A stretch of DNA of 64,000 bases from Euglena gracilis (Eukaryota), in the NCBI GenBank assembly GCA_039621445.1, contig CP154954.1:33271455-33335454 (forward strand). Direction: 5' to 3'. How positions within the stretch are numbered: position 1 is the stretch's first letter; every line of letters starts with the position of its first letter. The position numbers were made by a program, and so were the translations under genes. Shown here in pieces: positions 2,146-41,529 of this stretch. A model generated the notes under the pieces. That model saw nothing but the letters and a program-made list of their open reading frames with translations. It had not been told where the DNA came from and made no database searches.

Positions 2146-2211
2146 AGTTCAACTGGAACAAGAAATTCAAAGAACAGAAACACAGATATCAACAAAGGAC
2201 TTCCATGAAGA

Positions 2212-5200
2212 ATGAATTTCAAAGAAACTCTGAATTTCAAGAAGAACTGCAAAGAACTTCCAAGAAGTCAACTGAAGCTGGGGAAGGTGAAGTCACAGCA
2301 GCAGCTGCAGAAGGAGATGAGGCGGCAGCAGCACGTCAGTCCGTGGCCATCGCAACCCCCCCACCCCCCAGCAAATCAAAGATTTCAGACTCCCCCACTC
2401 AAAATGATGGCCATGGACCATGGACAACTGTGGTCAGGAAGAGACACAGGGAGACTACCATCACAGGTCCAACAGACTCCACCCCTTTTTCTCAGTTCCT
2501 CCCCTTCCAGGGGAAGAAGCAAAGGCTATGGCAGCCTCTCAAGGGAGATCAGAAATCCAAAGGATTCAAATCGAAATCAAGGCTATGGCAGCCATCATTC
2601 AACAGGGCCTGGGGCCCAGAATCAAGGCTCTGGCAGCCATTATTCAAGAGGGCAGTGGGCCCAGGGGCAAGGCTATGGCAGCCAGTACCCCAGCCTGGAG
2701 AGATCCCATTGGGAAAAGGTATGTCCAACTTTTCCCCCAGCAATTTCAGACACAAACCTCCCAGGAGCAGCAAGCCAATGCCAAACACAGGCCATGGTGG
2801 CCTATACTGGGAACCCAGAAGGACAGAGAAGAGAAAGTCCTGGAAAGAAGGCCAATGGAGGCCAAGCAGGCCTGTGTGCCACTGGCAGCCAGATGGAGGC
2901 AAATGGACAGAGAAGTCCTGGAGAAAAGGCCAATGGGGGCCAAGCAGGCCTGAGTGCCTCTGGAGGCCCAAGGGCCCTGAAGGCAAGTGGTGGCCAAAAC
3001 CATCAAGACCACATCAGCCCTTGGGGGGGAGGCCCAAGATTGGCTCAGGCAGGCCCCCCCCAGAAGATAATCAGCCCAGCATTATATGTACCACCCCACC
3101 ACAGACCTTCCCCCATCATTCCAAAACAGGGGGAAAGCCTGTCTTTGGAAAGCCCTATGGCAGGGCCAGCTGCAGCCCCAGTGATGGGGCACCCAGAGGG
3201 GCCCCCAGTGATGGGGCAGCCCAGGGGAAGGACCCCTGTGATGGGGCCTGTGGAATCCCCAGATACATTACACCCAGGGGTGCCCCCCTACAAGGCCCTG
3301 CAGGCCAGTATCCCCCATTGGGTCAAGGCAGGAGCCAGCAGAGAGGTATTAAACCTGATAAGGGAAGGGGTTATGGCAGATCTCCCCCTCCCCCCTCAGA
3401 TGTCATTAAAAGTTCCCTTCAAGACACCCCAAGAAATAATGACTGCCCGAAAAATTCTGAGGGAATACGAATGTGCAGGGGCAACCAGGCAAATCCCCCC
3501 AGAGGAGGCAAAACATTTTGTCCCTTATTTCATCCTTTCCAAAAAAGAGGGGGAAAAGACAAAAGAAAGATTAATCTCAGATTGTCGACAGTTAAATCTC
3601 CACTTCACCCCCCAGAAGTTCAGACTGGAACACATGGGAAACATTTTCCCATACCTAAGAAAAGGATGGTTCTGTGGAAAAATAGATCTGAAAGATGCTT
3701 ATTTTCACCTAAAACTGCACAGCAGCCTGGAAAAACATGTCTGCATGCAAGTGGGGGGGGGGAAACTTGGCAGTTTCAAGCTGCATTTTTGGCATCAGCA
3801 GCCTGCCACAAAAGTTTATGACTCTCATGAGAGTCTGGGAAAGGAAGTGGAGAAAGGAGGGAAAGGTAGTTTTCATCTACCTAGACGACATTTTGCTGTT
3901 AGCCCCCAGCAAAAAGACTGCAGCCCAACATTTGGCAGAAATAAAGCAGGACCTTTTATTGGCAGGTTTCGGATTAAACCTCCCCAAATCCTGTCTGGAA
4001 CCCACACAGGAGATAAAACATTTGGGCCAGTGGGTCAATTTGAAAAAGGGCCAGCTGGAAATCCCACAGGAAAAACTAAAATCCTTAAGAAAGGAGCTGG
4101 GAAAAGTGCTCACAGCACAAAAAATGAGCTGCAGAAAACTCAGCTCTATTGTGGGGCAGGTCAGAAGCTATTTAGTTTCCATGCCATTTCTCAGAATTCT
4201 GACAGATCAACTTTGCAAAATGGTGGATTTACACACAAAGTGGGGTTGGGACCACACCCTGACCATTCCCCAGGGGGTCAAAGATCAAATTGTGGAGTTA
4301 AAAGCGTTTTTGCAGCCAGGTGTGGGCAGAGCCTTTCAATCCCAGGCCTCTCAGGATCTGTTTTCAGACAGCAGCACCTGGCAGTGGGGGGGGCTGGACA
4401 AAAACTCAGGCCAAAAAGTGCAGGATTTTTGGAGGGACCTGCACATCCTTCACATCAACCAAAAAGAATTGATGTCAGCAGTGGAGACAGTAAAAAGTCT
4501 GGCAAAGCCAAAACAAACCATAATGCTTCATGTGGACAGCCAAGTGGCTGTAAGTTATCTAACAAAATGGGGAGGCAAAAAGCCCTACCTAAATTCCATT
4601 TTAAAACCCCTGCTGTATCATTGCCTAGAAAAGCAAATCAATTTGCAGGTGGTTTGGGTTCCCACAAAAGAGCAATTGGCAGACTCCCTGACCAGGGAGC
4701 AAAAGGACCCAGGGGATTATACCCAAAACCTACATCTCTTTCACCAAATTCTGAAATTTTTCAGACAGGACATTACCCCAGAGGAGGACATGTTTTGCAC
4801 ACCCAGCAACAAAAAATTCCCCAAGTTTGTTTGTCGGTACCCCCACCAAGGGGCTTTGCTGGTGGATGCCTTGAAGGCAGATTTGAGGGGGCTCCCCCCA
4901 GTTTATGCAAACCCCCCCTGGAGCATCATTCCCCAATGGGTTCAGAGATTAATGGTAAACCCAGACCTGACTTGTCTGTTGATCGTACCCCACTGGGCTT
5001 CAACATCATGGTGGCGCCAATTAATGGCAATCAGAAAGCCAGGCAGCAAAGTTTTGTTGGTACCCCCCCAATGGGGTCTATTCACCAACTGCTGGGGGGA
5101 GGAGATGCCCCCCCCAAGGTGGAAATTGGCCTGCTTGATTGTGTCAGGCAAATATTACAATCCCAGGAAGTTTCGATGTCCAGTATCGACACTTACATAA
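2212..5200 (+). CDS. DIRS pol: low-complexity N-terminus, reverse transcriptase, RNase H, DNA-methyltransferase-like domain (frameshift at G-run ~3762-3772)
   Basis: The 2212 frame gives KERLISDCRQLN...KIDLKDAYFHL. The 3737 frame continues FGISSLPQKF...FIYLDDILL, RNase H LFSDSS..WGG...HINQKEL...VDSQVAV...LADSLTR, then DMFCT.SNKK.PKF...DAL...YANPPW...LIVPHW. Confidence 0.9.
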
Positions 5201-5300
5201 AAAATCTGGGAAATGTCAAGAGATATGATTCAGCCTTCAGGACATTGGTGGGCCAATTGTCGCACAAAGGGGTGCCCTGCAGGACTGCACAGTCCACAAG

Positions 5301-6413
5301 ATGGCCGAGGCCATCCTTGATTTGGCTGCCCACAGCCTCAACACTGCACGCAATGCATATGCAGCAGTTTTATTACTCCCAGGGTTTGGGTCATTGAGGT
5401 TTTCCCCTCTTTTGTCTCCATTGAAAAGGAAATGGAATTCCAATGTCTGCAAGTATGCCCATTTCTGGGACCCTACTGATTTTCTAAACAACATCATCAA
5501 ACAATCAAGACCCCTCTCAGAACTCTCTGTGAAAGAGCTCAGAAACAGACTCATCATTTGTTGGAGGCTTTTGGCCCTCCACAGGGGGGTTGATTTAGCC
5601 AGGACACAGCGAAAAATCAGTTTCGTGGGAGAAAAAAATTATATTTTATTGCAAAGAAAAGGGTGGCAATTCCCAAGATGGGAGGAAGTTTTGAATTTAC
5701 CACACACCCCCCTCATCAGCCCCTGGCACCTATTGAAAGAGTATGTGGAAAGGACAGCCCACATGGTTGGGCACAAAAATAATTTGTTATGGTCTTTGGA
5801 TGGTAAACGACCTTTGACATCAGAAAGAGTGAATTCCCTTACCAAAGAAATTCTGCAAGAGGGGGGGGTGGACACCACCCACTGGAAACCCCACAGCACC
5901 AGAGGGGCTGGGGTTTTATGGTGGAAAAATGCGGGTTTACAAGTGGAAGAAGTCCAGCAGCTGGGTCAGTGGAAAAATTTTGGGGCCTTCCAAGCTCACT
6001 ATTTGCGACTGGGTGTCGTTTCAAAAATTCAAAATATTATGGCCCAAAGGGGGGTGCACAGTACCTCACCATCTCGCAGTGCGGAGCCCGAATGGTCTCG
6101 GACTCCCACGACAGAGGAAGGGGGAGGAAGGGACCAAGAGGGCGAAGCACAAGAAGATGGTGAGCCCAACCCCCCCACCCAAAAAATCAGCGGAAAAAGA
6201 AAAACATCCCAACCAGAAAGGGGACCCCCGACCAAGCAGCCCCAACCACCCACCCGGAAAAACACCAGAAAGAGACCACCATCCCCATCGAGGGGGGGGC
6301 CCCCCAGCAAGCAACCATGCGTGAGGGGGGGGGCGGGGCCACGACGGTTCCACTTCGCCAAGGTGTCGGACGAGGCCTCATCTTCGCCAACTCCGGCAAC
6401 AAAGGCGCAGTAA
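5301..6413 (+). CDS. DIRS tyrosine recombinase; N-terminal part lies in the 2212 frame upstream of a frameshift near 5270-5280
   Basis: Catalytic pattern: LHRGVDL (R), PHSTRG (HxxR), LGQWK...FQAHY (W...Y). Confidence 0.9.
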   Translation: MAEAILDLAAHSLNTARNAYAAVLLLPGFGSLRFSPLLSPLKRKWNSNVCKYAHFWDPTDFLNNIIKQSRPLSELSVKELRNRLIICWRLLALHRGVDLARTQRKISFVGEKNYILLQRKGWQFPRWEEVLNLPHTPLISPWHLLKEYVERTAHMVGHKNNLLWSLDGKRPLTSERVNSLTKEILQEGGVDTTHWKPHSTRGAGVLWWKNAGLQVEEVQQLGQWKNFGAFQAHYLRLGVVSKIQNIMAQRGVHSTSPSRSAEPEWSRTPTTEEGGGRDQEGEAQEDGEPNPPTQKISGKRKTSQPERGPPTKQPQPPTRKNTRKRPPSPSRGGPPSKQPCVRGGAGPRRFHFAKVSDEASSSPTPATKAQ

Positions 6414-6681
6414 GAAGCACCCCCCGCGCACGCACAAACACACCAGAACAGAACAGCCGGCAAGGAAAGCAGGACCTCACCATCTTCTTGTGCTTCGCCC
6501 TCTTGGTCCCTTCCTCCCCCTTCCTCTGTCGTGGGAGTCCGAAAATGGCAAAGTGCGGAGTTCGAGGTGTCTGGACAGGGGACCCCTCCGCAAACTCCGG
6601 CAACAAACGCGCGGTAAGAAAGACCACTCACCATCTTCTTGCGCCTCGCCCTCTTGGTCCCTTCCCGTGCCGTGGGAGTCC
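6098..6681. repeat. DIRS 3' terminal repeats: 67-bp perfect inverted pair (6098-6164 / 6476-6542), a diverged second inverted copy (6627-6681) and a direct repeat (~6390-6416 / ~6593-6620)
   Basis: tcggactcccacgacagagg...agatggtgag versus ctcaccatct...gtgggagtccga; aactccggcaacaaa.gcgc.gtaagaa occurs twice. Confidence 0.9.
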
Positions 6682-7170
6682 GGGACCCCGCCAAAAAACA
6701 ACCAATCTCTGAAAACCCTAGTGTCCTCATCATCATTGGATGAATACCCACACCTGATCACCCAAAGCTTTTTTTGAATATCGACAAAATGCTTCCAAAA
6801 GTGTAAAAAAAAAGTGGGAAAATGGGAAAAATGCGCAAAAAATTTCTTTCAAAAAGGGTCAGAACAGAGCACAAATCAAACAACATAACTCAGCGTCAAT
6901 ACAACATTGATCAAAGAGCAATTTGATAATATACAATCAAAATCAAAAAAGCCAAAATGAAACTGCAACATGTAAAAAAAGCCAGAAATTCTTAAAAATG
7001 CAAAAAAAATGCGCGAAAAAAATCGAAAAAATGCGAAAAAATGCGCATTTCCCAAAAATTCGGAAAATGCGCAAAAAATGCGCAAAAATTCGAAACACAT
7101 TTCCTCCCCCCTGCCAGTGCAGCGGATCGTTTTGGACCGGAGATCGTTTTGGACCGGGGAAACGCTGGCA

Positions 7171-10100
7171 GTGGAACGGGGGCGAGATGGGGTAGGGCCG
7201 CGGTGCGGCGTAGACCAGGCTGTGCAGGGCGGGGCTGCCGGCGCCGAACAGCTCCAGCCCCTCCTCCTCGCTGCGCAGGTGGGGCAGGCTCCCCCGGCGG
7301 CGGGCAAAGCGGTCCTGCGAGGGGCGGGCAAACAGGGCAGTCCAGAAATGAAGCAAAAAGACCTGGGTGAGCTCCGGGCGCTGGAAATTCTTTGGGAATG
7401 CTCCAAGACGGCTCAATATTGGGGGGGGGCACAGGCAATTTGAAAATTATTGGCCTTTTCCTTGCACAATAATCCGGGAAAAAAAACTGATTTTCTAGGC
7501 TTTGCCATGGCAGCTGGATTGGGGATCTGAATTGGTTTGAGTTGAATTGGTTTGAGGGACACCTGTGGAGGTCATCTAGCACCTATGGTCATCCAGAGTC
7601 CCAGGCCCAATCGTGCCCAGTCAAGCCCAGCACGCCAACAGAGATCCCAACCATCCCAACTTTGAGGGAGGCTGTTTGGCCATTTGTTGTTTGGCCACAT
7701 TTTGGCGTTCTTTGCCCACTTTTTGCCCACTTTGGGCTGCTTCAACTTCTGGCTGTCACGACACCCTAACACTAACCCTGGCCGCTTTTTTGCTGCGCTT
7801 TGGCCATCTGTGCCAACGTTCAGATACTTTTTGCTGCTTTTGAGAATTCTTGGCCAATTTCGCCAACGTTTGGCCACTGTTTGCTTTTGACTGCTTTTAG
7901 CAGCTTTCTGAAGCCTTTTGAGGACACTCTAGCCAACTCTTTTCGCCAAAGTGGCCAAAAGAAGCTAAAAAACTTAGGCGGCAGTAATGGCACTTAAGGG
8001 TTTTCGGGCCCGAAAACCGGATCGTCCGCGGTTTTGGGACCGGCTGTGGTCAAAACCCCCACTGGGAACGACATGAGCCGAACGAAAGACGCGATGGGGC
8101 GCACCTGCGCCCGTGAGGACACGTCCGGCGCGCGCACCTGCGCTTGAGCAGACCCCAAAATCAGGCGCAGGTGCGCACGACGGATCAGTAAGATCAAGCG
8201 CAGGTGCGCGCGATCCTACCGTGAGATCGTGGCAGGTGCCTGTGTGCTGGGGCCCCGGAATGAGTGGCGGCAGGGAGGGGACACACTCTGTTTTGAGGGC
8301 AACGCCTGCAGAACCCACCGATCGCTGCAGGACCGAAAGTCGGTCACCGGAGGACTCCGGAACCCCATCAGGCACACAGGGGCTGCAAGCCCACCGCCGC
8401 CGTGTTGGATACCCCCGAGCCAGATGGGCCCACACCCAGCACCGAACCGCGCGCACCTGCGCACGGGGACACACACACTTCGGGCGCAGGTGTGTCCAAT
8501 TGAGGTGTGGACGAGGGACCCCGTGGCGTGGGTTCAACGGCCAGGCCAGAGGGGCGAAGCATCCCGAAAGTGTCGTGCCCATGTGCGCGCGTTGGGGACC
8601 CCCCCTGGTTGTTGCCCACGGCGGCCACTGTTTGAAACCCGTGGCCGCACACACACAAAGGAACGTTCAGGGAGCGGGTGTGTCCCCCTTGGGCCGTGCA
8701 CGCGTGCGTGAGGGACGTGCGAACACTCGGTGTGGGTGGTACAGCCAGGTGAACACGTCCGCCACCAACGCCCGACTGCCTCAACGGTGGTCCGGTGCTC
8801 GCATTTGCGCTCTGACGACGTACGCTGCCATCACGGACCCCGAGACGTGGTCCGAGGGTGACAAGGCAGGGCCGAAGGAACCGTGTCCTCAAGCGCAGGT
8901 GCGCACCAGGATGCCCCACAACCGGCGCTGCGAGACCCAGTCCTTCATCACAATCACACTGTGATAAATTCCCTTCCCTTCTCAACAACTAACAAACCTC
9001 CCCAACTGGCGGTCAGCAATCCAAGCCATCTCCTTCACAATGCGTTCGGTTCAACGAGATTCACATCCATCCTCTGGCCCCAAAACGCAATGAGCAAACA
9101 CAACTGGCGTATGTACTTTCCTTTCCCTTTATAACAACTTACATTGATTGTAATACGATTTCAATAAGATTGCAACCTTTTACAATTGACATCTCAACAA
9201 TTTACAATTTGGTGCAGTGGAGATGCATTGCCAAAACTGGTTCCCGCTTGCCCTTCCCTGTGTCAATTGCCTTCCGTCCGTCCCTCGCATTCATGTCCCC
9301 TGCAGTTCAAATTCTCAAACAAATCAAAATGCACACTAATTCCAGTTCCCGCCCCTGTGTATGTCAATCCGCAAACCATTCCCCACCTTGCGGAGATGAT
9401 CAGCCCGCTGCTGCCAGCGCAGAGTGGCACACTTGTGGGGGTCATCCAATCGAGCCGATGGGTGTCATTGCAAAGCTCCGGATCAATATCAAAATGGTTA
9501 ATCCTCCCCTCCAAGCTGCCTTCTGTCAGAAACTCACAATCCCCAATTTTGTTGTCCTTTTGACCACTGCAGGGATTTTTTTCCAAAAAAACCTCGGACC
9601 ATTCAATTCTCAACCTCTGCTTGCCTGGATGGGCCAAGGCTGTGGTTGGGTGTCTGAACCAGGCAACACCAGATGAGTGGGTTCGACTCACTCAACCCAC
9701 CACAGCACCACACAACCGCCTCATCCAAAAGAGGGTTCTTGCCTGAAGGAATAAAAAGCGTCTCTGCAATTGCATTCAATCACGCACAAATCTCAGCTGC
9801 TTGCGGCCCCTCTTGGAATGAAATCCAAATGAGGGAATATGAGCAACTTGACCGCTGACGGTACACACAACCAAGCAGGAGGTAAAAACCCAGGCTGCAT
9901 GTGGGGGGGTTTGGGGAGCTGTTGGGATCGTCAGGGGGTTATTCTTTTAGGGTGCCTTGAAGGTCCTTGGGAACCCTTAAAAAATCATTCTGGAAAATTT
10001 TCGAAATTCTTCACATGCTTTTGCAATATCTCAGCAAAAACAGGCCAATCCTGGGGGAAAAAACGATTTCGGGCATCCCTGGAACATCCACCATCAACCC

Positions 10101-13100
10101 AGACCCGAAAAAAAAAGTTTTCAACCTTTTTTCTGATTTTAGGCCATTTGACATCCAGATCAGGGGTTTTTTTAAGACCGGGGGGGGGTCCCCCCCACCC
10201 ACCCACCCCCCTGGGGGGGAGGGGGTCCCGGGGGACCCACAAAAATGGCCGAAAAATCGCGAAAAGTGCTAAAAATAGAATTTTTTCGGCGCCTGCGGCG
10301 CCGAAAAGTATATCCCACCCCCCTCCAGGGGGGGGGGGGGGAGGGGGTAGGGGGGACCCACGCACCACAACCCCCCCCCCCCCCCCCCCAGGGGTCCAAA
10401 CTTAAAAAAATCCCTGATCCAGATGGCCCTTGTACTTCCCCTGGAAAAGAGATACAATGAAATTTTAAAAAGTGCCTTAAAATTGAACATTAAAAACCTA
10501 TAAACAAAACTAAAACAAAAATCAAAAAAAACTTTGAAATTTTTAAAAATTGAGCCTTAAAAAATCATAACCCCAAGGTACCATTTGGGGCGAGGGGGGG
10601 GATAAAAATTTTGGAGGTGGCCTCCACGCCTTCAACTGCATTCACCACCAAATCAAAACCCCCTCCCAAAATGACCTGGCGGGGTGCCAAAAGACAAGAA
10701 CAATCTTGTTGCCTTGCCCTTTGCAAGGTTGTTCGTACACTGCCAGGATATTTGGGTGGTTCATACAAATTGCTCTTCTTCCTTTGCACCTTCCATTTTC
10801 CAACAATTCAATTTACCCACCAAATGGATTATCTCTTCTGAAGAAATACAATGTCCACCCAATTTGCTTTGCCCCGAATGGCACTCGGGGGGTTACGCTT
10901 CCTTTCGCCCCAGCACTTGGCTGTTGCTGGTCATTCAGTCGAGCTGGTGACTGTCATTGCCAAGCACCAAATCAGAATCAGAAGCCTTCTCCTGGTCAAC
11001 AATTGGGGTGGGTGGGGCAGCTGATGCTGAACATGATACCCACCGGAGGGGAAAATCCCCCGCCCACAGAGCACATGCATTTGGCTCTCACCAAAACCAT
11101 TTGCACGAAAACATTTTGTGGGCTTTCTTTCCTTTTGGTGCAACGCACGGTAATCTGGAACTGATTTCCTGGGCTTTGCCATTGTGCCAAAATTGGGGAT
11201 CTGAATTGGTCTGAGGGTCACCTGTGGAGGTCATCCAATCGAGCCGATGGGTGTCATTGCAAAAGCTCCGGATCAAAATCAACATAATCAATCCTCCCTT
11301 CCAAGCTGATTCATTTCACAATCCCTATGAGCTGGATCAACTAACTCATCCTTGCCTGGATGAGCCAGGGCTGGTGCGGGGAAGGGCGGGTGGGGGAAAT
11401 TGAGCCCTCTCCAGGCAAAGCCAACCTACCACAGCACCACAGACAAACGAATCATTATCCAAAACAGCATTCCCGCCAGTCCAGTGTGCTTGCCATTCAG
11501 GAGGAGGGGCTGTGGCTGCCGGTGGAGGTCATCCAATCGAGCCTATGGGTGTCATTGCAGAGCTCCGGGCCAAACAGCAAAGCTAATCCTCCCTCCCACC
11601 ACATTGGCAGCCGTCAATGGCCGCCCCACCCGTTTTCTGTGCCCCTGGAGAGACGGATGCTGATCAGCCAGGGGAATCATTGTGCCATCACAGTGTGAAC
11701 TCTGGTGTTGAGAAATATGATGTGCATCATGTCAGCCCATCCAATGCCAATTCAGGGTAACTGCATGTGAACAAACAGCTGGGGCAAGACAATTGCGTTC
11801 TTGAGGGGACAATCCATCTCAACCCATTGCCATGGGCCATCAGACTCCAGACTCCGTACACGAATCACAATTCATTTCGGTGGTGTGCAACGGTGGTGGT
11901 CATCACAAGGCACAGCGGCCACACATCCGGGGATGAATCCACCTGAACAAGTGGGGGATGTCCAGCCTTGTGGGGGGGGGGGGTTTGAAATGGGCGCCTC
12001 CGAGCAGGTTCCCAGTCCACTTTTTTCAGCGCAACCTTTTTCGGGGGGGGGTCAGGTTGGGCGCAGCAGAGGACGGGGGGGGGGGCAAAATGGGCCAACA
12101 GCCCAGAGGATCAATAACACGCGGGGGGGGGGGGAGTTTCAATTGCCTTCTGTCTGTCACTGGTTGAAAAACACGGGCCAAGCAATCAGGGCGGACAAAG
12201 AATCAACGCGAGGCTCATTGTGGTGTGCAGTAAGGGGATCATCACGTAATCCACTCCAAATTACTGAACTTCGTAGCTGGTTTGGGGCACTGAGTTGGTC
12301 TGGGGGACACGACGCCTGTGGAGGTCATCCAATCGAGCCGAGGGTTGTCATTGCAGAGCTCCGGATCAAAATCAACAAAATTAATCCTCTCCTCCAAACA
12401 GCATTTTACAAGCCCAAACTTCCTTGGCTTTTGATCATCACTACGGATCAGGCTTTTGTTTAAAGACCCGGGGGGGGGGTACTTCCTAGCCAATCGGCAA
12501 GACACTGGAAAAAATGGACTAGCTAGACCCCCCTGGGGGGTCCGGGGGTCCCCCCAACTGGATAAAAAATTTTCCTCCGGCACTGCACGCCGAGGTGGAA
12601 ATGACGTTTTTAATAGGTTTTGGGCTGATTTTGTTCCGAGAATTCCCATTTTTGGCCATTTGGGGGGGTCACAAAAAAATTCCGGCGCTTTGCGCCGGTC
12701 ACAGGAAAAAGTTTTCCACTAGCTAGCCCTGCTAGCAGATCCCCCCAGGGGGGGGGTAGCCCTGCTAGCAGATCCCCCCCGGGGGGGGGGGTCTGCTAGA
12801 AATCTCACTAGCCAAATTTGGACTAGCTAGTCCATCCACCCCCCCCCCCCGGGGGTACTGCAATCCCTTAAGCAAAAGCCTGCTACAGATCAGGCTGTTT
12901 TTTTTACCAACCTGGGGGGGGGGCGAGGGGGGGGGTCCGGAGAGCCTGCCCAGGCAGCTACCACCCCCCACGGGGGAGGGTCGGATTTCGGCCTGCGCCC
13001 AGGCACACTCCTTTGAAAATAGGCCATTTTGGCACCCCCCCGCCTTTGGCGCTGGTGTCTGTGCTAGGGCACTGTTGGCTGTGGCTTATCGGGGTTGGGA

Positions 13101-16100
13101 GTGCCGTGGAGTGCCTTTGCCCCCCCCCTTCGGTTGGTGTCGGCACCACCTTAAAAACAGCCTGCTACGGATTACCAAAATTCCCTTCAAAAATGATAAT
13201 TTCCCACAATTTCTTGCTTCGATCTTGCAGTACAGCACAGGAAGCGCTGGTTTGGGTCGTTGACGGGCATCATCTTTGAGGCACACCAAAAACCTACAAA
13301 TGCCTTAAATTAAAAATCTGGCAAAATATTCTCCAAACAAAAATGCAACCATAAAATCTCAGCAACAACAGGCCAACTCCAGGGAAACAAAATGATTTCT
13401 TCAAGCCAGCCCATGGCCAGCCCAAATGCGCAACAAAACCCCCTTCCCATTCCATTGTGGGACCACCCTTCCCATTCTGCCACAAAACCGCGCAAACGAA
13501 TCCAAATCCAAAATAGGATTCTTGCTGGGAGGCTGCCTGCAAAAATGCAGAGTTCTGCATTCAGGCAAATCTCAGTTGCTTGCGGCCCCTCTTGGAATGC
13601 AAAGCCCATGAGGGAATATGAGCAACTTGACCACTGATGGTGTACACAACCAAGCTACCAATGGCGGAAAAAACTCAAGCCTTTCCCAGCCTTCTCGCTT
13701 TCACTCGGGGGGGGGGGGGGTCCCGGGGGTTTCGATGTTTGCCCATTTCCGGACCCTCCAAAAACACAATTTTTTGGCAAGTTCCCGGAGTAACACCATC
13801 AAAAAACGGATTTTTGCACATGTCGCCATATTATCAGACACCCCAGAGCCGAAATAAAATTTTCGTTAATTTGCGCAAACCAACACAAAAAGATGAAATG
13901 AGAATGCTGCTGCCTAAATTGAGCCCCCCCCCCCCCGGCAGAACCAGGGTTGCTGCACCCAACCCACCACAGCACCACACACAAACAAATCATTATCCAA
14001 AACAGCATTCCCGCCAGTCCAGCGTGCTTGCCATTCAGGAGGAGGGGCCGTGGCTGCCGGTGGAGGTCATCCAATCGAGCCTATGGGTGTCATTGCAGAG
14101 CTCCGGGCCAAACAGCAAAGCTAATCCTCCCTCCCACCACATTGGCAGCCGTCAATGGCCGCCCCACCCGTTTTCTGTGCCCCTGGAGGGACGGATGCTG
14201 ATCAGCCAGGGGAATCATTGTGCCATCACAGTGTGAACTCTGGTGTTGAGTAATATGATGTGCATCATGCAAACTTTTGCGCCTTGTCGGCTGTCAGCCC
14301 ACCCAATGCCAATTCAGGGTAACTGCATGTGAACAAACAGCTGGGGCAAGACAATTGCGTTCTTGAGGGGACAATCCATCTCAACCCATTGCCATGGGCC
14401 ATCAGACTCCAGACTCCGTACACGAATCACAATTCATTTCGGTGGTGTGCAACGGTGGTGGTCATCACAAGGCACAGCGGCCACACATCCGGGGATGAAT
14501 CCAGCCGGACAAATGGGGGATGTCCAGCCTTGTGGGGGGGGGGGGGGGGGGGGGCTCTCCGAGCAGATTCCCCGTCCTTCATCACAATCACACTGTGAAT
14601 TCCCTTCCCTTCTCAACAACTAACAAACCTCCCCAACTGGCGGTCAGCAATCCAAGCCATCTCCTTCACAATGCGTTCGGTTCAACGAGATTCACATCCA
14701 TCCTCTGGCCCCAAAACGCAATGAGCAAACACAACTGGCGTATGTACTTTCCTTTCCCTTTATAACAACTTACATTGATTGTAATACGATTTCAATAAGA
14801 TTACAACCTTTTACAGTTGACATCTCAACAATTTACAATTTGGTGCAGTGGAGATGCATTGCCAAAGCTGGTTCCCGCTTGCCCTTCCCTGTGTCAATTG
14901 CCTTCCGTCCGTCCCTCGCATTCATGTCCCCTGCAGTTCAAATTCTCAAACAAATCAAAATGCACACTAATTCCAGTTCCCGCCCCTGTGTATGTCAATC
15001 CGCAAACCATTCCCCACCTTGCGGAGATGATCAGCCCCGTTGCTGCCAGCGCAGAGTGGCGCACTTGTGGGGTCATCCAATCGAGCCGATGGGTGTCATT
15101 GCAAAGCTCCGGATCAATATCAAAATGGTTAATCCTCCCCTCCAAGCTGCCTTCTGTCAGAAACTCACAATCCCCAATTTTGTTGTCCTTTTGAGCAATG
15201 CAGGGATTTTTTCCAAAAAAAACCTCGGACCATTCAATTCTCAACCTCTGCTTGCCTGGATGGGCCAAGGCTGTGGTTGGGTGTCTGGACCAGGCAACAC
15301 CAGATGAGTGGGTTCGACTCACTCAACCCACCACAGCACCACACAACCGACTCATCCAAAAGAGGGTTCTTGCCTGAAAAAAAAAAGCGTCTCTGCAATT
15401 GCATTCAATCACGCACAAATCTCAGCTGCTTGCGGCCCCTCTTGGAATGAAATCCAAATGAGGGAATATGAGCAACTTGACCGCTGACGGTACACACAAC
15501 CAAGCAGGAGGTAAAAACCCAGGCTGCATGTGTGGGGGGTTTGGGGAGCTGTTGGGGGGGGGATCGTCAGGGGGTTATTCTTTTAGGGTGCCTTGAATGT
15601 CCTTGGGAACCCTTAAAAAATCATTCTGGAAAATTTTCGAAATTCTTCACATGCTTTTGCAATATCTCAGCAAAAACAGGCCAATCCTGGGGGAAAAACG
15701 ATTTCGGGCATCGCTGGAACATCCTCCATCAACCCAAACTCGAAAAAAAAAGTTTTCAACCTTTTTCTGATTTTAAGCCATTTGACATCCAGATGGCCCT
15801 TGTACTTCCCCTGGAAAAGAGATACAATGAAATTTTAAAAAATGCCTTAAAATTGAACATTAAAATCCTATAAACAAAACTAAAACAAAAATCAAAAAAA
15901 ACTTTGAAATTTTTAAAAATTGAGCCTTAAAAAATCATAACCCCAAGGTACCATTTGGGGCGAGGGGGGGGGATAAAAATTTTGGAGGTGGCCTCCACGC
16001 CTTCAACTGCATTCACCACCAAATCAAAACCCCCTCCCAAAATGACCTGGCGGGGTGCCAAAAGACAAGAACAATCTTGTTGCCTTGCCCTTTGCAAGGT

Positions 16101-19100
16101 TGTTCGTACACTGCCAGGATATTTGGGTGGTTCATACAAATTGCTCTTCTTCCTTTGCACCTTCCATTTTCCAACAATTCAATTTACCCACCAAATGGAT
16201 TATCTCTTCTGAAGAAATACAATGTCCACCCAATTTGCTTTGCCCCGAATGGCACTTGGGGGGTTACGCTTCCTTTCGCCCCAGCACTTGGCTGTTGCTG
16301 GTCATTCAGTCGAGCTGGTGACTGTCATTGCCAAGCACCAAATCAGAATCAGAAGCCTTCTCCTGGTCAACAATTGGGGTGGGTGGGGCAGCTGATGCTG
16401 AACATGATACCCACCGGAGGGGAAAATCCCCCGCCCACAGAGCACATGCATTTGGCTCTCACCAAAACCATTTGCACGAAAACATTTTGTGGGCTTTCTT
16501 TCCTTTTGGTGCAACGCACGGTAATCTGGAACTGATTTCCTGGGCTTTGCCATTGTGCCAAAATTGGGGATCTGAATTGGTCTGAGGGTCACCTGTGGAG
16601 GTCATCCAATCGAGCCGATGGGTGTCATTGCAAAAGCTCCGGATCAAAATCAACATAATCAATCCTCCCTTCCAAGCTGATTCATTTCACAATCCCTATG
16701 AGCTGGATCAACTAACTCATCCTTGCCTGGATGAGCCAGGGCTGGTGCGGGGAAAGCGGGGGGGTGGAATTGAGCCCTCTCCAGGCAAAGCCAACCTACC
16801 ACAGCACCACAGACAAACGAATCATTATCCAAAACAGCATTCCCGCCAGTCCAGTGTGCTTGCCATTCAGGAGGAGGGGCTGTGGCTGCCGGTGGAGGTC
16901 ATCCAATCGAGCCTATGGGTGTCATTGCAGAGCTCCGGGCCAAACAGCAAAGCTAATCCTCCCTCCCACCACATTGGCAGCCGTCAATGGCCGCCCCACC
17001 CGTTTTCTGTGCCCCTGGAGAGACGGATGCTGATCAGCCAGGGGAATCATTGTGCCATCACAGTGTGAACTCTGGTGTTGAGAAATATGATGTGCATCAT
17101 GTCAGCCCATCCAATGCCAATTCAGGGTAACTGCATGTGAACAAACAGCTGGGGCAAGACAATTGCGTTCTTGAGGGGACAATCCATCTCAACCCATTGC
17201 CATCAGACTCCAGACTCCGTACACGAATCACAATTCATTTCGGTGGTGTGCAACGGTGGTGGTCATCACAAGGCACAGCGGCCACACATCCGGGGATGAA
17301 TCCACCTGAACAAGTGGGGGATGTCCAGCCTTGTGGGGGGGGGGGGGGGGTGGAGTGGTCTCCTCCGAGCAGGTTCCCAGTCCACTTTTTTCAGCGCAAC
17401 CTTTTTCGGGGGGGGGGTCAGGTTGGGCGCAGCAGAGGACGGGGGGCAAAATGGGCCAACAGCCCAGAGGATCAATAACACGCGGGGGGGGGGGGGAGTT
17501 TCAATTGCCTTCTGTCTGTCACTGGTTGAAAAACACGGGCCAAGCAATCAGGGCGGACAAAGAATCAACGCGAGGCTCATTGTGGTGTGCAGTAAGGGGA
17601 TCATCATGTAATCCACTCCAAATTACTGAACTTCGCAGCTGGTTAGGGGCTTTGAGCTGGTCTGGGGGACACGACACCTGTGGAGGTCATCCAATCGAGC
17701 CGAGGGTTGTCATTGCAGAGCTCCGGATCAAAATCAACAAAATTAATCCTCTCCTCCAAACAGCATTTTACAAGCCCAAACTTCCTTGGCTTTTGATCAT
17801 CACTACGGATCAGGCTTTTGTTTAAAGACCCGGGGGGGGGGGGGGGTACTTCCTAGCCAATCGGCTAGACACTGGAAAAAATGGACTAGCTAGACCCCCC
17901 TGGGGGGTCCGGGGGTCCCCCCAACTGGATAAAAAATTTTCCTCCGGCACTGCACGCCGAGGTGGAAATGACGTTTTTAATAGGTTTTGGGCTGATTTTG
18001 TTCCGAGAATTCCCATTTTTGGCCATTGGGGGGGGGTCCCAAAAAAATTCCGGCGCTTTGAGCCGGTCACAGGAAAAAGTTTTCCACTAGCTAGCCCTGC
18101 TAGCAGATCCCCCCCAGGGGGGGGGGTAGCCCTGCCAGCAGATCCCCCCCGGGGGGGGGGTCTGCTAGAAATCTCACTAGCCAAATTTGGACTAGCTAGT
18201 CCAGCCACCCCCCCCGGGGGTACTGCAATCCCTTAAGCAAAAGCCTGCTACAGATCAGGCTGTTTTTTTTACGGGGGGGGGGGGCGAGGGGGGTCCGGAG
18301 AGCCTGCCCAGGCAGCCACCACCCCCCACGGGGGAGGGTCGGATTTCGGCCTGCGCCCAGGCACACTCCTTTGAAAATAGGCCATTTTGGCACCCCCCCG
18401 CCTTTGGCGCTGGTGTCTGTGCTAGGGCACTGTTGGCTGTGGCTTATCGGGGTTGGGAGTGCCGTGGAGTGCCTTTGCCCCCCCCCCTCGGTTGGTGTCG
18501 GCACCACCTTAAAAACAGCCTGCTACGGATTACCAAAATTCCCTAATTTCCCACAATTTCTTGCTTCGATCTTGCAGTACAGCACAGGAAGCGCTGGTTT
18601 GGGTCGTTGACGGGCATCATCTTTGAGGCACACCAAAAACCTACAAATGCCTTAAATTAAAAATCTGGCAAAATATTCTCCAAACAAAAACGCAACCATA
18701 AAATCTCGGCAACAACAGGCCAACTCCAGGGAAACAAAATGATTTCTTCAAGCCAGCCCATGGCCAGCCCTCAAGCCCAAATGCGCAACAAAACCCCCTT
18801 CCCATTCCATTGTGGGACCACCCTTCCCATTCCGCCACAAAACCGCGCAAACAAATCCAAATCCAAAATAGGATTCTTGCTGGGAGGCTGCCTGCAAAAA
18901 TGCAGCGTTCTGCATTCAGGCAAATCTCAGTTGCTTGCGGCCCCTCTTGGAATGCAAAGCCCATGAGGGAATATGAGCAACTTGACCACTGATGGTGTAC
19001 ACAACCAAGCTACCAATGGCGGAAAAAACTCAAGCCTTTCCCAGCCTTCTCGCTTTCACTCGGGGGGGGGGGTCCCGGGGGTTTCGATGTGCGGAGCCCA

Positions 19101-22100
19101 TTTCCGGACCCTCCAAAAACACAATTTTTTGGCAAGTTCCCGGAGTAACACCATCAAAAAACGGATTTTTGCACATGTCGCCATATTATCGGACACCCCA
19201 GAGCCGAAATAAAATTTTCGTTAATTTGCGCATACGCGCAAACCAACACAAAAAGATGAAATGAGAATGCTGCTGCCTAAATTGAGCCCCACCCCCGGCA
19301 AAACCAGGGTTGCTGCACCCAACCCACCACAGCACCACACACAAACAAATCATTATCCAAAACAGCATTCCCGCCAGTCCAGCGTGCTTGCCATTCAGGA
19401 GGAGGGGCCGTGGCTGCCGGTGGAGGTCATCCAATCGAGCCTATGGGTGTCATTGCAGAGCTCCGGGCCAAACAGCAAAGCTAATCCTCCCTCCCACCAC
19501 ACTGGCAGCCGTCAATGGCCGCCCCACCCGTTTTCTGTGCCCCTGGAGGGACGGATGCTGATCAGCCAGGGGAATCATTGTGCCATCACAGTGTGAACTC
19601 TGGTGTTGAGAAATATGATATGCATCATGCAAACTTTTGCGCCTTGTCGGCTGTCAGCCCACCCAATGCCAATTCAGGGTAACTGCATGTGAACAAACAG
19701 CTGGGGCAAGACAATTGCGTTCTTGAGGGGACAATCCATCTCAACCCATTGCCATGGGCCATCAGACTCCAGACTCCGTACACGAATCACAATTCATTTC
19801 GGTGGTGTGCAACGGTGGTGGTCATCACAAGGCACAGCGGCCACACATCCGGGGATGAATCCAGCCGGACAAATGGGGGACGTCCAGCCTTGTGGGGGGG
19901 GGGGGGTGGAGCTCTCCGAGCAGATTCCCCGTCCTTCATCACAATCACACTGTGAATTCCCTTCCCTTTTCAACAACTAACAAACCTCCCCAACTGGCGG
20001 TCAGCAATCCAAGCCATCTCCTTCACAATGCGTTCGGTTCAACGAGATTCACATCCATCCTCTGGCCCCAAAACGCAATGAGCAAACACAACTGGCGTAT
20101 GTACTTTCCTTTCCCTTTATAACAACTCACATTGATTGTAATACGATTTCAATAAGATTGCAACCTTTTACAATTGACATCTCAACAATTTACAATTTGG
20201 TGCAGTGGAGATGCATTGCCAAAGCTGGTTCCCGCTTGCCCTTCCCTGTGTCAATTGCCTTCCGTCCGTCCCTCGCATTCATATCCCCTGCAGTTCAAAT
20301 TCTCAAACAAATCAAAATGCACACTAATTCCAGTTCCCGCCCCTGTGTATATCAATCCGCAAACCGTTCCCCACCTTGCGGAGATGATCAGCCCGTTGCT
20401 GCCAGCGCAGAGTGGCACACTTGTGGGGGTCATCCAATCGAGCCGATGGGTGTCATTGCAAAGCTCCGGATCAATATCAAAATGGTTAATCCTCCCCTCC
20501 AAGCTGCCTTCTGTCAGAAACTCGCAATCCCCAATTTTGTTGTCCTTTTGACCACTGCAGGGATTTTTTCCAAAAAAAACCTCGGACCATTCAATTCTCA
20601 ACCTCTGCTTGCCTGGATGGGCCAAGGCTGTGGTTGGGTGTCTGGACCAGGCAACACCAGATGAGTGGGTTCGACTCACTCAACCCACCACAGCACCACA
20701 CAACCGACTCATCCAAAAGAGGGTTCTTGCCTGAAAAAAAAAAGCGTCTCTGCAATTGCATTCAATCACGCACAAATCTCAGCTGCTTGCGGCCCCTCTT
20801 GGAATGAAATCCAAATGAGGGAATATGAGCAACTTGACCGCTGACGGTACACACAACCAAGCAGAAGGTAAAAACCCAGGCTGCATGTGTGGGGGGTTTG
20901 GGGAGCTGTCGGGGGTGCCTTGAAGGTCCTTGGAAAACCCTTAAAAATTCATTCTGGAAAATTTTCGAAATTCTTCACAAAAATGCTTTTGCAATATCTC
21001 AGCAAAAACACGCCAATCCTGGGGAAAAACGATTTCGGGCATCGCTGGAACATCCTCCATCAACCCAAACTCGAAATCAATGATTCCCGTACGCTGGGGA
21101 AAGGAACCCCCCTGCAAACTTTATAAAAACTTTATACCCAAGGGGAGGTTACTGAAATCACTGCCCCCCCGGGCAGGGCGGTTGGCCACTCAAATATCAA
21201 ATCAGAAGAGACAAAGCATCAGTGTGGGGGCTCAGAGTGGTGTGCAGTGAGGGAATCATCACATAAACAATCCAATTCCAGTGCGGGGGCTCAGAGTGGT
21301 GTGCAGTGAGGGAATCATCACATAAACAATCCAATTCCCTGGGACTCGGGGCGGGGGGAAGGGGGGGGGGTATTTTTTGTCTAGAAACGGCCGGGGTCAT
21401 CCAATCGAGGCTGTGAATCTCTTTATGGAGCTGTGGGCCAAACTGTCAGATATTTGTCCTCATACATTGTGGCGGTGGCACTTTCGGACCTACCTGCTGA
21501 TACCCTGAAAATCAGTGGTGCACACCTTCGGCTCCGGTGGGTTCAATGGCAGCTGCTGCAGCCCACGCACCACGATGGCCTGGCCCACCGCCTGCGGGGC
21601 ACCGCCCGCCGCCAGCGCATGCGACAGGGGGAGGAACGCTGGGCTGTACAACGGCGTGGCCCGAAGGGCGGCCGCCAGGGAGGCGTTGTCGGGGAAGACC
21701 ACCGCAAGGGCCGTGCGTGCGGGCCGGGGCGTGCAGATGGCCCAAGAATGCAGGTGGCAGCAAGGCCCTGGCCGGGAAGGGCACCGCGCAGAACATCGAG
21801 GACACCCGCATGGAGTTGTAGGTCCGCAGCGCCCGGCACAGATTGCCCAACGGGTAGGCGGTGGCCCCGGCGGAACGGGTCGGGAGGAGGTACGTGTCCA
21901 GGGCGGCAGCAATCACCTGAGGGGGGGGGGTCCCACGTGAAAACCACCTCCCCACGCGGCCTTCCCCCACAATACCTTCCCGTTGGGGGGATCCCATTTC
22001 CAACGGTGGAAATCCCTATCCAGTGAACCCCCCCTTCAAGCAAAAGTCTGGGGAGTCCAGCCATCCAGCCCTTTTACAGGGGTGTCATAAAGCACTGTGA

Positions 22101-24319
22101 AAGTTTGTTTCCCTGGCCTCATTCATTTCAGCATCTTCAAAAGCAAAAATTTCCAAAACAACTGAGGGGTGCATGCACACTGCTGTTTGGGCCACGGCGT
22201 CGGCCTTGAGGTCGAAAAGCAGCAACGGGAAAGGGGCTGGGTCGGTGGGAATCATCCAGTCGGCAATGTTGAGGGGAACGTATACGTCCCCGGCTGCACT
22301 CTGTGAAGAGAGGGTGCACCTTGAGAAAGTCCTACCAAATGCCAAAAAAGAAACAGCTGATTTGCCAAAATGAAACGGCCAACAATCGCCAAAGAAAATG
22401 CCCAAAAAAAGCAAACATTGGTCCAAAACGACGCAAAAATGGCCCAATGTGGCTCAGAGTAGCCCAAAATGCAAATGGGCCAAAACTGGCAAAAAAAGGG
22501 CCGAAAAGGAAAACAAATGGCCTAAAATGGTTGGAAAGAAGTCAAAAATGGACCAAAAAGCCGCCGAAAATATGCGGGAATGGGCAAATATGCAGCGGGA
22601 AAACCCTCGGAAAATATGCGAAAAATTCACAAAACATGTGATTTTTGGGGTCAAAAAACGAAATATGCACTACCCCCCCCCGAGTCGTATGACCGGGTTC
22701 CTGCAACCTGTGACCGGGGGGGGGTGGTCATAACACCCCCATAACCTGCAACCTGTGACCGGGGGGTGGTCATAGATGAGGGGGCGGTCGTAGAAGTGTG
22801 TGAAAACTGTCCCAAAATGGCAGATTTACCCCCCCAAAATGTCCCATTTTTCAAAAATCCGGCGCTTCGCGCCGGCACGGGGGGCCACATTGGGGGGGGT
22901 CCATTTCATGGATTTTTGCTCGAACCGGCCAGGGGGGGGACTTTTTTGGGGGGTTATATTTTTCGCAACCTGCAACCTGTGACCGGGGGGGGGGTGGTCA
23001 TAACACCCCCATGACCTGCAACCTGTGACCGGGGGGTGGTCATAAATGAGGGGTGGTCGTACGACTAGGGGGGGGGTAAATATGTAGAATATGTAGAATA
23101 TGCGCAAAATATGCGCTCCGCGTTCCCCCCCCTGCCTTGCGGCTCCCCTTTAGCCCCTTTCTTTCAGTCGTCTGGGGAGAGGAATGCATGAAGAGCGTTT
23201 TTGGACTTGCACAGCACACCAAATCGGCAGTGCTGAAGCCAAAATTGAGCAGATGAAGAGTGTGGTGTAGTGTCTGATGGGCCGACGGGGAACGTTCAGG
23301 TTGATTCACCGCCTGGAGGAAGACTGGCCGGTTGCCGAGGTCGTCCTTTATGGTGCAGTCAGCATGCCTTTCCTGCAAACCAAGCCTGCCTGCCCTTGGA
23401 TGATCAGAGCCTGGACGAGAGATAAATTGGCACCGTGGCTGGCAGGCGTAGTTGGCGACTGGGAGGGGTGGGTTGACAAACCAATGAGGGCGCAATACAA
23501 ACTCCAAATGGCAGCACATGTTGCACCCAGTGGTGGAATTGGGTGACTGCAGCGGAAAGCCTGCTGGGTCTCCACCAACCGGTGCGTCAGGCCCCCGAAC
23601 GCACCCAGCGCATCGCAGGTCATGTGGTAGCCCTGCAAGGCATCGCAGCCTTCCACAAAGCGGCGGATGGGCTCCGCAAAAGTATCGATGGCAAAGGTTT
23701 GCGCATCCGCACCCATCGGGAACATGTTGTACAGCCCCAGACCTGCAGGGGGGGGGGACACAACTTCCTCTTTGGAGTGTACGGTGGCTGCACAATTGCT
23801 GAATCTTCACTCCACCCAAGAACCCCCACTTGGGGTGGATAAGAGATGCTTTAGGGGGATCATCTTGTCTTCTCCAAGAAATGCCGAATTTCCCCCCTCA
23901 TGTGTTTCCATGACACAAAACCCCCAGAGTACTGCACTTGCGTTTCGACCTTTGAGCCCTCTGGGATTGGACTGGCCTTTTATTCAATCGGCCCTTTGGT
24001 TGATGACGGTCTTCGATGCCAATCCCTTTAGGGGAAAAAACTACAGGGACCCTGTACAACTGTACAAGAAACCTGGGTCCCACCAAAAAAATGGTGGTTT
24101 TGGGGGTGGTTCACAGCCCCCTTCCCAAATTACCTCCCTCCCCTTATACCGCTAAATATCGTTGCTGTCCGGGGGGGGGGGGGGGGCGCTTTTTGGCCAA
24201 ATATCGCCACTGACCAGGGGGTGGTCGTTTGACAAGACCGGGGTCAAAACGCAAATCTGGAAAAAAAAGATCACCTGGAAAAAGATTGCTACTGACCGAG
24301 GGGTGGTCGTTGGACAAGG

Positions 24320-41248: not shown

Positions 41249-41529
41249 CAGGGGTGTGTGTAAGACCGGGGGGGGGAGGGTGGGTCCCCCCACCCACCCC
41301 ACCCCGGGGGGGGGGGGGAGGGGTCCCGGAGGAACCCACAAAAAAAAATGGCCGAAAAAAATCGCGAAAAAAAGTGCTAAAAATAGAATTTTTTTCGGCG
41401 CCTGCAGCGCCAAAAAAAAGTATATCCCACCCACCTCCGGGGGGGGCCCCCCCCCGGGGGGGCCCGGCCGGGCCCACCCCCCCCCCTCCTCCCTCCCCCC
41501 CCGGGGGTCCAAACTTAAAAAAATCCCTG
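41249..41529. mobile_element. hAT-like MITE, TSD GCCCGGCA, same family as 10161-10416
   Basis: gcccggca-CAGGGG...cttaaaaaaatCCCTG-gcccggca. Confidence 0.9.

Follow-up and report, generated by a model that had tools for sequence, protein, structure and literature searches.

Are the guide RNAs of euglenid ribosomes released from the introns of host genes, as in algae and plants, or are they made from polycistronic units of their own, as in trypanosomatids? This question is raised by a 64,000-nt stretch of Euglena gracilis DNA (contig CP154954.1, positions 33,271,455 to 33,335,454, here called the window), in which candidate small nucleolar RNA (snoRNA) genes lie within the intron of a gene for a Misato-like protein. 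The Euglena ribosome is given 349 ribosomal RNA (rRNA) modifications, the most reported for any ribosome (PMC7672448), and therefore hundreds of guide RNAs are needed. While the genome was fragmentary, the chromosomal placement and the expression of the guide genes were beyond study. The locus is a testable case: a mixed cluster, in sense orientation, in a verified and very large intron of an ordinary protein-coding gene. It also bears on how new guide isoforms originate and on the nature of an 85-nt element that is clustered with the guides. We argue that the locus is very probably a mixed cluster of the euglenozoan type, composed of genes for rRNA-modification guide RNAs, that was duplicated to about 2.2 copies inside the intron and was then entered by a miniature inverted-repeat transposable element (MITE). 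The cluster holds four box C/D species (11 genes) and one strong AGA-box species (5 genes), all in sense to the host.

It is worth asking first whether the intron is real. A euglenid transcriptome protein of 603 amino acids (P0001) was retrieved with the translation of one window exon. It carries a Tubulin_3 domain (E = 3.3e-11), a domain of Misato/DML1 proteins. Exon 1 of the window has a weak match to Misato segment II that is under the Pfam cut-off. In tblastn P0001 is colinear with the minus strand from 27357 to 7174; residues 375-426 fall at 21681-21526 and residues 425-473 at 7320-7174. The splice borders read AAG/GTGTGC at 21526/21525 (donor) and CAG/GAC at 7315/7314 (acceptor), so the host gene and both borders are the ones that an earlier note, made from the sequence alone, had named. 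Spliced messenger RNA (mRNA) contigs from two studies (runs X1 and X4) cover 22301-22178, 21913-21772 and 21698-21525. One is X1 record 6 (1693 nt, depth 82) and the other is X4 record 12 (807 nt, depth 236). Past 21525 both contigs run on for 30 letters that are identical to window positions 7284-7313. The earlier note had proposed complementary DNA as the check that exon 21526 joins 7314, and these contigs show that join. Colinearity, borders and contig join together mean that the 14,211-nt GT-AG intron is real and is spliced out. The relevant features are these:

7315..21525, minus strand: GT-AG spliceosomal intron of the Misato-like gene, 14,211 nt (tblastn colinearity, X1 and X4 contigs, border reading)
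21526..21698, minus strand: exon upstream of the intron (X1 record 6 and X4 record 12 each contain a piece 21525-21698; tblastn residues 375-426)
7174..7314, minus strand: downstream exon, with an approximate 3' limit (tblastn residues 425-473; match of the contig loose ends)

The median intron in the draft genome is 598 nt and some introns are very large (PMC6366073). Residues 474-603 of P0001 have no tblastn match within the window, though the X1 mRNA contig continues for 523 nt past the 21525 junction. The 3' exons of the gene are either too divergent to detect or beyond the window start (minus strand, 1-7173). Upstream of the large intron, 73 nt at 21699-21771 (minus strand) are removed in raw reads of runs X24 and X21 and in contigs of X1 and X4. 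The ends of this segment are CC..GG and not GT-AG, with a 2-nt ambiguity. It is a non-conventional euglenid intron beside the conventional introns 21914-22177 and 7315-21525.

Most of the large intron is a tandem repeat. Self-BLAST aligns 8936-10160 with 14570-15794 (97.2%), 10417-15558 with 15787-20915 (97.3%) and 8936-10110 with 19927-21076 (95.0%), and a repeat search gives start-to-start spacings of 5631 and 5357 bp. This amounts to about 2.2 copies of a 5.4-5.6-kb unit across 8936-21076 at 95-97% identity. The claimed unit of 5.36 kb is thus recovered, both as the size of copy B and as the 5357-bp spacing. The whole cluster had also been called amplified; the tandem repeat is there, but at about 2.2 copies the word overstates its extent.

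8936..14569, minus strand: repeat copy A, 5.63 kb, with a MITE insertion (self-BLAST, repeat search)
14570..19926, minus strand: repeat copy B, 5.36 kb (self-BLAST, repeat search)
19927..21076, minus strand: partial repeat copy C, 1.15 kb (self-BLAST, 95.0% to the start of copy A)
10161..10416, no strand assigned: MITE of 256 bp, in copy A only (terminal inverted repeats and 8-bp target-site duplication ATCCAGAT)
17830..18440, no strand assigned: block of dispersed repeats inside the unit

Copy A is longer than copy B by 256 bp, and this is the MITE. Its terminal inverted repeats match at 15 of 16 positions, and the duplicated target site ATCCAGAT stands at 10153-10160 and again at 10417-10424. 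It therefore has what defines a MITE. Copy B keeps the empty site, so the MITE must have arrived after the duplication. A relative at 41274-41529 is 79% similar. Embedded MITEs had been noted, and one is proven by its inverted repeats and target-site duplication. The block at 17830-18440 resembles six other places in the window at 77-89% similarity, and its depth in RNA assemblies is very high, which is why we class it as dispersed repeats. The poly-G/poly-C-flanked palindromic repeats at 17734-18401 are covered in RNA assemblies by contigs whose depths sum to hundreds to thousands, with many chimeric joints and loose ends of G runs; they are dispersed elements that are either highly expressed or highly repeated. 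Within each unit a sub-repeat of about 600 bp occurs twice. Its four copies are near-identical throughout, and there is no contrast of conservation within the segment.

The next step is what the array encodes. The minus strand of the intron has 13 occurrences of the C-box motif RTGATGA and the plus strand has none; as a control, there are 11 in the remainder of the window (about 99.6 kb of strand). A relaxed scan of 14570-21525 for a C box followed by a D box returned 8 minus-strand hits, which represent 4 distinct species, and no plus-strand hit. Internal D'/C' boxes are present in 6 of the 8. The same scan of about 99 kb of control strand gave 37 hits, 10 with internal boxes. Four species of 60-67 nt, in 11 genes, are well formed as box C/D RNAs. 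The class calls for a RUGAUGA C box close to the 5' end and a CUGA D box close to the 3' end, with 55-100 nt between them:

19762..19828, minus strand: candidate A, 67 nt, C box GUGAUGA, D box CUGA; identical copies at 17203-17269, 14402-14468 and 11840-11906 (box scan)
19562..19628, minus strand: candidate B, 67 nt, C box AUGAUGC, D' box CAGA, C' box UGAUGG, D box CUGA; further copies at 17034-17100, 14202-14268 and 11664-11730 (box scan)
17548..17607, minus strand: candidate C, 60 nt (box scan)
12186..12245, minus strand: second copy of candidate C; the R of its C box is G and not A
21202..21262, minus strand: candidate D, 61 nt, C box GUGAUGA, D' box CUGA, C' box UGAUGC, D box CUGA (box scan)

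The C box is perfect in A, C and D and is AUGAUGC in B, and all four have CUGA as D box. Candidate D lies in the unique 5' part of the intron, and its C, D', C' and D boxes are all laid out canonically; a 59-bp tandem duplication gives it a 5' partial copy that reaches 21321. Unit B alone holds 5 box C/D genes (A twice, B twice, C once), which is the number per unit that had been claimed. Further C boxes at 19942, 14585, 8951, 17803 and 12441 have no D box within range, and we do not count them as genes.

The AGA-box hairpins are the second guide class. Of 80 AGA triplets scanned on the minus strand, 8 score as hits (5 distinct), and of the 63 on the plus strand none does; in the control, 36 kb of strand, 5 of 413 AGA triplets do. 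So everything lies on the strand of the host gene, as had been stated: 13 C boxes, 8 C/D pairs and 8 AGA hairpins there, and none of each on the other strand. One species stands out. RNA f is a 61-nt single-hairpin AGA-box RNA with five genes of two paralogue types:

18922..18982, minus strand: RNA f type 1, 61 nt; second copy at 13567-13627 (hairpin scan, fold)
15417..15477, minus strand: RNA f type 2; copies at 20774-20834 and 9788-9848 (hairpin scan, fold)
15244..15298, minus strand: weak AGA-box hairpin h, with no target found; copy at 20601-20655 (hairpin scan)

The published criteria for H/ACA-like RNAs of trypanosomatids ask for a hairpin of 57-91 nt, a stem I of 5-8 perfect base pairs and 1-3 nt from it to the AGA. 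They also ask for a pocket with 5-11 nt on its 5' side and the target 13-16 nt from the AGA, a perfect stem II of 3-7 bp at the pocket, a loop of at least 5 nt and a fold of -5 kcal/mol or lower (PMC2613932). RNA f has every one of the listed features. It has an A ahead of stem I, a stem I of 7 bp, 1 unpaired nucleotide and then AGA. Its pocket has 5-6 nt on each side, with 13-14 nt from pocket top and target to the AGA, and adjoins a stem II of 5-6 bp; the apical loop has 6-8 nt and the fold energy is -22 kcal/mol. Differences between the two paralogues lie in the upper stem (its 5' strand), in the loop and at one position of stem I, and every helix is retained despite the changed bases. Three or four AGA-box hairpins per unit had been claimed. 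Hairpins are present, with 2 strong ones in unit B and at most 3 weak ones, but only the two f paralogues are strong. The weak distinct hairpins g, h and i are no stronger than the control hits. Searches of heterologous rRNA found no target for h or i, and a low-complexity match is all that g has; it overlaps the 3' end of f.

If these are guides they should pair with rRNA. The tests were made against heterologous eukaryotic rRNA, namely five complete ribosomal DNA (rDNA) units annotated with Rfam, from loci fished with the target motif of candidate B plus a conserved tail. Of 8 short metagenome-assembled-genome contigs tested after this fishing, 6 contain large-subunit (LSU) rRNA by Rfam. The motif is found in at least 96 metagenome contigs, and Rfam annotated 6 of these, with LSU in 6 of 6. 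A box C/D guide should be antisense to its target over 10 nt or more, with the duplex ending beside the D or D' box. The D guide of candidate B, GAUUCCCCUGG, is antisense over 11 Watson-Crick nucleotides that abut the D box to conserved LSU rRNA in 5 of 5 rDNAs, though this 5 of 5 is partly by construction since the loci were fished with the B motif. Among 5000 shuffled B guides, 5 reach all five sets and 68 reach any set. The claimed LSU match is thus reproduced, and the predicted methylation site of RNA B is a G within the conserved LSU segment CCAGGGGAAUC, namely the second of its run of Gs.

RNA f gives a second fit, of a different kind. The two sides of its pocket, CAUAUU and GCCGCA, fit UG(C/U)GGC-UU-AAUUUG of the small-subunit (SSU) rRNA in 5 of 5 rDNAs, and this SSU segment occurs in 23 SSU-containing loci. 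The pairing runs 6 bp, unpaired UU, 3 bp, a U-U mismatch and 2 bp, so rRNA pairing flanks the unpaired nucleotides on both sides as it should in a two-part pocket; 77 of 5000 shuffles equal the fit. From this the predicted pseudouridylation site is the first U of UU in SSU UGCGGC-UU-AAUUUG, which we take, by the yeast numbering, to be the yeast Psi1181 site. Yeast snR85 guides 18S Psi1181 with U1181-U1182 left unpaired, and 8 bp are enough (PMC6049503). RNA f is like snR85 in that its pocket leaves UU unpaired with the first U as target, and its 9 contiguous base pairs plus 2 compare with the yeast minimum of 8 bp. It is unlike snR85 in being a single hairpin with an AGA box, since the yeast RNA is a two-hairpin H/ACA RNA. 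A guide match to the SSU sequence UGCGGCUUAAUUUG had been claimed. It holds only in the form of the two-part pocket; no contiguous complement of UGCGGCUUAAUUUG was found on either strand within 2 mismatches, nor with G-U wobble.

The D' guides of A, C and D have a common core, UGCACACCA, and pair over 10-11 nt (one of them G-U) with the conserved LSU segment GGUGUGCG in 3-4 of the 5 rDNA units. We treat this putative match as a lead only; the sites that it would predict neighbour one another around an LSU GGUGUGC segment. A scan of genome contigs for the 18-nt target of the D' guide gave 3 matches, in long bacterial contigs and with no rDNA. The D guide of A pairs over 9 nt with the 5' end of 1 of 5 heterologous 5.8S rRNAs, which is chance level; the 5.8S match that had been thought plausible is weak. 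A search for euglenid rDNA among the fished loci found no locus that matched several guides well.

How would such RNAs be made? That mature RNAs are expressed, how they are processed and which modifications they direct we infer as follows. A long sense-strand precursor would be cut and trimmed into RNAs of 60-70 nt. It could be the host pre-mRNA or the excised intron, or else a polycistronic transcript with a start of its own within the intron. After trimming, the RNAs would join fibrillarin or Cbf5 complexes and then pair with pre-rRNA, which would lead to 2'-O-methylation or pseudouridylation.

One can picture the array as an independent polycistronic unit with its own start inside the intron, so that transcription and splicing of the host are irrelevant to snoRNA production. 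We lean against this scenario but regard it as a serious one. Both Euglena and trypanosomatid clusters are summarised as polycistronic (PMC7671301, PMC2613932), and the RNA assemblies could be read in its favour. Four public runs were compared with 17400-22400, with about 5-6% of each raw run read. X1 and X4 have contigs over most of 17525-20915, at depths of 3.6-8, and none on the unique part of the intron at 21074-21407, nor on the neighbouring 264-nt intron. A transcript confined to the array fits this pattern. Stable RNA from the array, unequal copy number and paralogous loci could each account for the array-limited contigs. These contigs, of putative RNA origin, are 200-830 nt long and span several candidates (X4 record 10 joins 19316-19638 to 19957-20462). 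On the other side, the array is strictly co-oriented with the host gene, and candidate D and an element like the 85-nt one lie outside the repeat, near the 5' splice site. There is no promoter model for this organism, and copy number would also explain the depth difference.

Several points weigh against a cluster of working guides. The choice of loci behind the match of candidate B has been mentioned, and its fair chance figure is about 68 in 5000 (about 1%) per guide, times 7 guides. The match of the A, C and D D' guides is nominal (P 0.015-0.04; at 3 of 5 sets, 75 of 5000 shuffles equal it). The other guides, 4 of them of C/D type, have no target in the heterologous rRNA, and in gapless full-length scores against 100 rDNA loci no guide rose above its shuffles. 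In structure, candidates A and C have degenerate internal boxes (3 mismatches summed) and C has no terminal stem. Rfam gives no match at gathering thresholds and, at E-values up to 10, only two chance-level C/D hits. Read pile-ups with defined ends 60-70 nt apart were absent from the 5-6% of the raw runs that was read, and pre-mRNA, DNA carried over from a multi-copy region or paralogous loci could each lie behind the low-depth contigs of the array. Finally, the C/D and f genes differ between copies A and B by 3 substitutions in 450 nt, as opposed to 64 in 4345 nt elsewhere, which is no significant depletion (P = 0.10). A search of sequencing runs listed none recorded as RNA among those that match. 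Contigs of other runs have variant junctions: 19638/19957 skips 318 bp including candidate A, and 20506/19319 goes back 1188 bp. These suggest further copies, alleles, or structural variants in other strains or loci.

The array might then be a silent or decaying segmental copy of a functional cluster elsewhere, which looks intact because the duplication is recent. At a divergence of only 1.3% in substitutions, boxes would stay intact even without selection. The P of 0.10, the variant junctions 19638-19957 and 20506-19319, which suggest further copies or alleles, and the failure to see mature RNAs in the sampled runs are all in line with this. However, when guide genes and 85-nt elements are taken together, only 5 of 972 nt changed against the same 64 of 4345 elsewhere. 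The sole change in a C box, in the second copy of candidate C, keeps the R consensus. The f paralogues retain their helices through changed bases, the MITE landed in a spacer and not in a gene, and sense-strand RNA is present; raw reads in the array are a handful, and in the stranded run about 90% of the covered bases are sense. We think a silent copy improbable. Least plausible by far is that boxes and hairpins are chance features of repeated intronic DNA, for although the scanners do produce false hits in control sequence (37 C/D-like pairs, 5 AGA hairpins) and Rfam recognises nothing, chance does not account for strand splits of 13:0, 8:0 and 8:0, for two independent guide elements that fit universally conserved rRNA with the correct geometry, or for an RNA f that has every listed structural feature.

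The guide cluster contains one more component, which we call the e element. With 14 copies of about 85 nt it is the commonest element in the array. It is interleaved with the guide genes on the gene strand only, and no copy was found elsewhere in the window:

17675..17761, minus strand: e element, about 85 nt, invariant core CUCGAUUGGAUGACC, class unassigned
Near 21385-21471, 20418-20504, 19415-19501, 16887-16973, 16590-16676 and 16290-16376, minus strand: further e copies
Near 15061-15147, 14055-14141, 12313-12399, 11517-11603, 11219-11305, 10919-11005 and 9430-9516, minus strand: further e copies

The core CUCGAUUGGAUGACC is 15 nt and invariant. Between copies A and B the e elements have 2 substitutions in 522 nt, compared with 64 in 4345 nt of spacer (P = 0.018). 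One compensatory exchange of A-U to G-C supports a closing stem. The folds are branched and no better than those of shuffles, and the consensus structure is weak. We rejected e as a box C/D RNA, as it has no C or D boxes, and as an AGA-box RNA, as it has no AGA box after a stem and its pocket would be 23-28 nt. It has no match to rRNA in sense or antisense and no relative in Rfam. A speculative reading, which we would not expect to hold, is that e represents a new kind of small nucleolar-type RNA peculiar to euglenids, or else a processing module, and that it is expressed from the precursor that also yields the guides. If true, the host intron would be a dedicated small-RNA factory.

How does this compare with known systems? 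The tandemly repeated polycistronic snoRNA clusters of Euglena gracilis were reportedly described by Moore and Russell in 2012 and by Russell et al. in 2004 and 2006. Euglena snoRNA genes are clustered and multi-copy (PMC2784804), and a summary calls the clusters polycistronic (PMC7671301). The present array is like these in its compact C/D and single-hairpin genes of one orientation, its short spacers, its isoforms and its head-to-tail repetition of the cluster. It is unlike them in lying inside a spliced intron of a protein-coding gene and in consisting of about 2.2 repeats of a long 5.4-kb unit with transposon-like repeats. Trypanosomatid clusters also mix C/D and single-hairpin AGA-box RNAs (PMC2613932), and RNA f matches the consensus published for them feature by feature. 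An intronic host is no option for trypanosomatids because their genes are almost entirely without cis-spliced introns (PMC11613528). Intronic snoRNA clusters are described in Chlamydomonas, plants and Ostreococcus (PMC7671301). The array is like these in having several snoRNA genes in one spliced intron in sense to the host. It is unlike them in its lineage, in its very large intron of 14.2 kb and in the tandem duplication of the whole cluster; its RNAs may be released from the intron. A literature search found no description of an intronic Euglena snoRNA cluster, though the primary Euglena papers lay outside that search and a prior description is possible. The locus contributes a verified intronic, sense-oriented cluster in a euglenid, with a datable duplication and MITE insertion. 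The general arrangement of mixed tandem clusters was already known for Euglena, so the surprise for a specialist is modest.

One neighbour of the array deserves mention. A frameshifted DIRS-like retroelement occupies 1908-6413 on the plus strand. It has domains for a reverse transcriptase (RVT_1, E = 1.4e-8) and a tyrosine recombinase (Phage_integrase, E = 4e-5), and a weak match to a Dam-like methyltransferase (E = 0.003). The element is downstream of the last Misato exon found in the window, presumably within the intron that follows. A motif of about 60 nt (ggactcccacg...caagaagatggtgag) occurs in several copies and in both orientations at 6029-6757, adjoining the retroelement, and may represent its terminal repeats.

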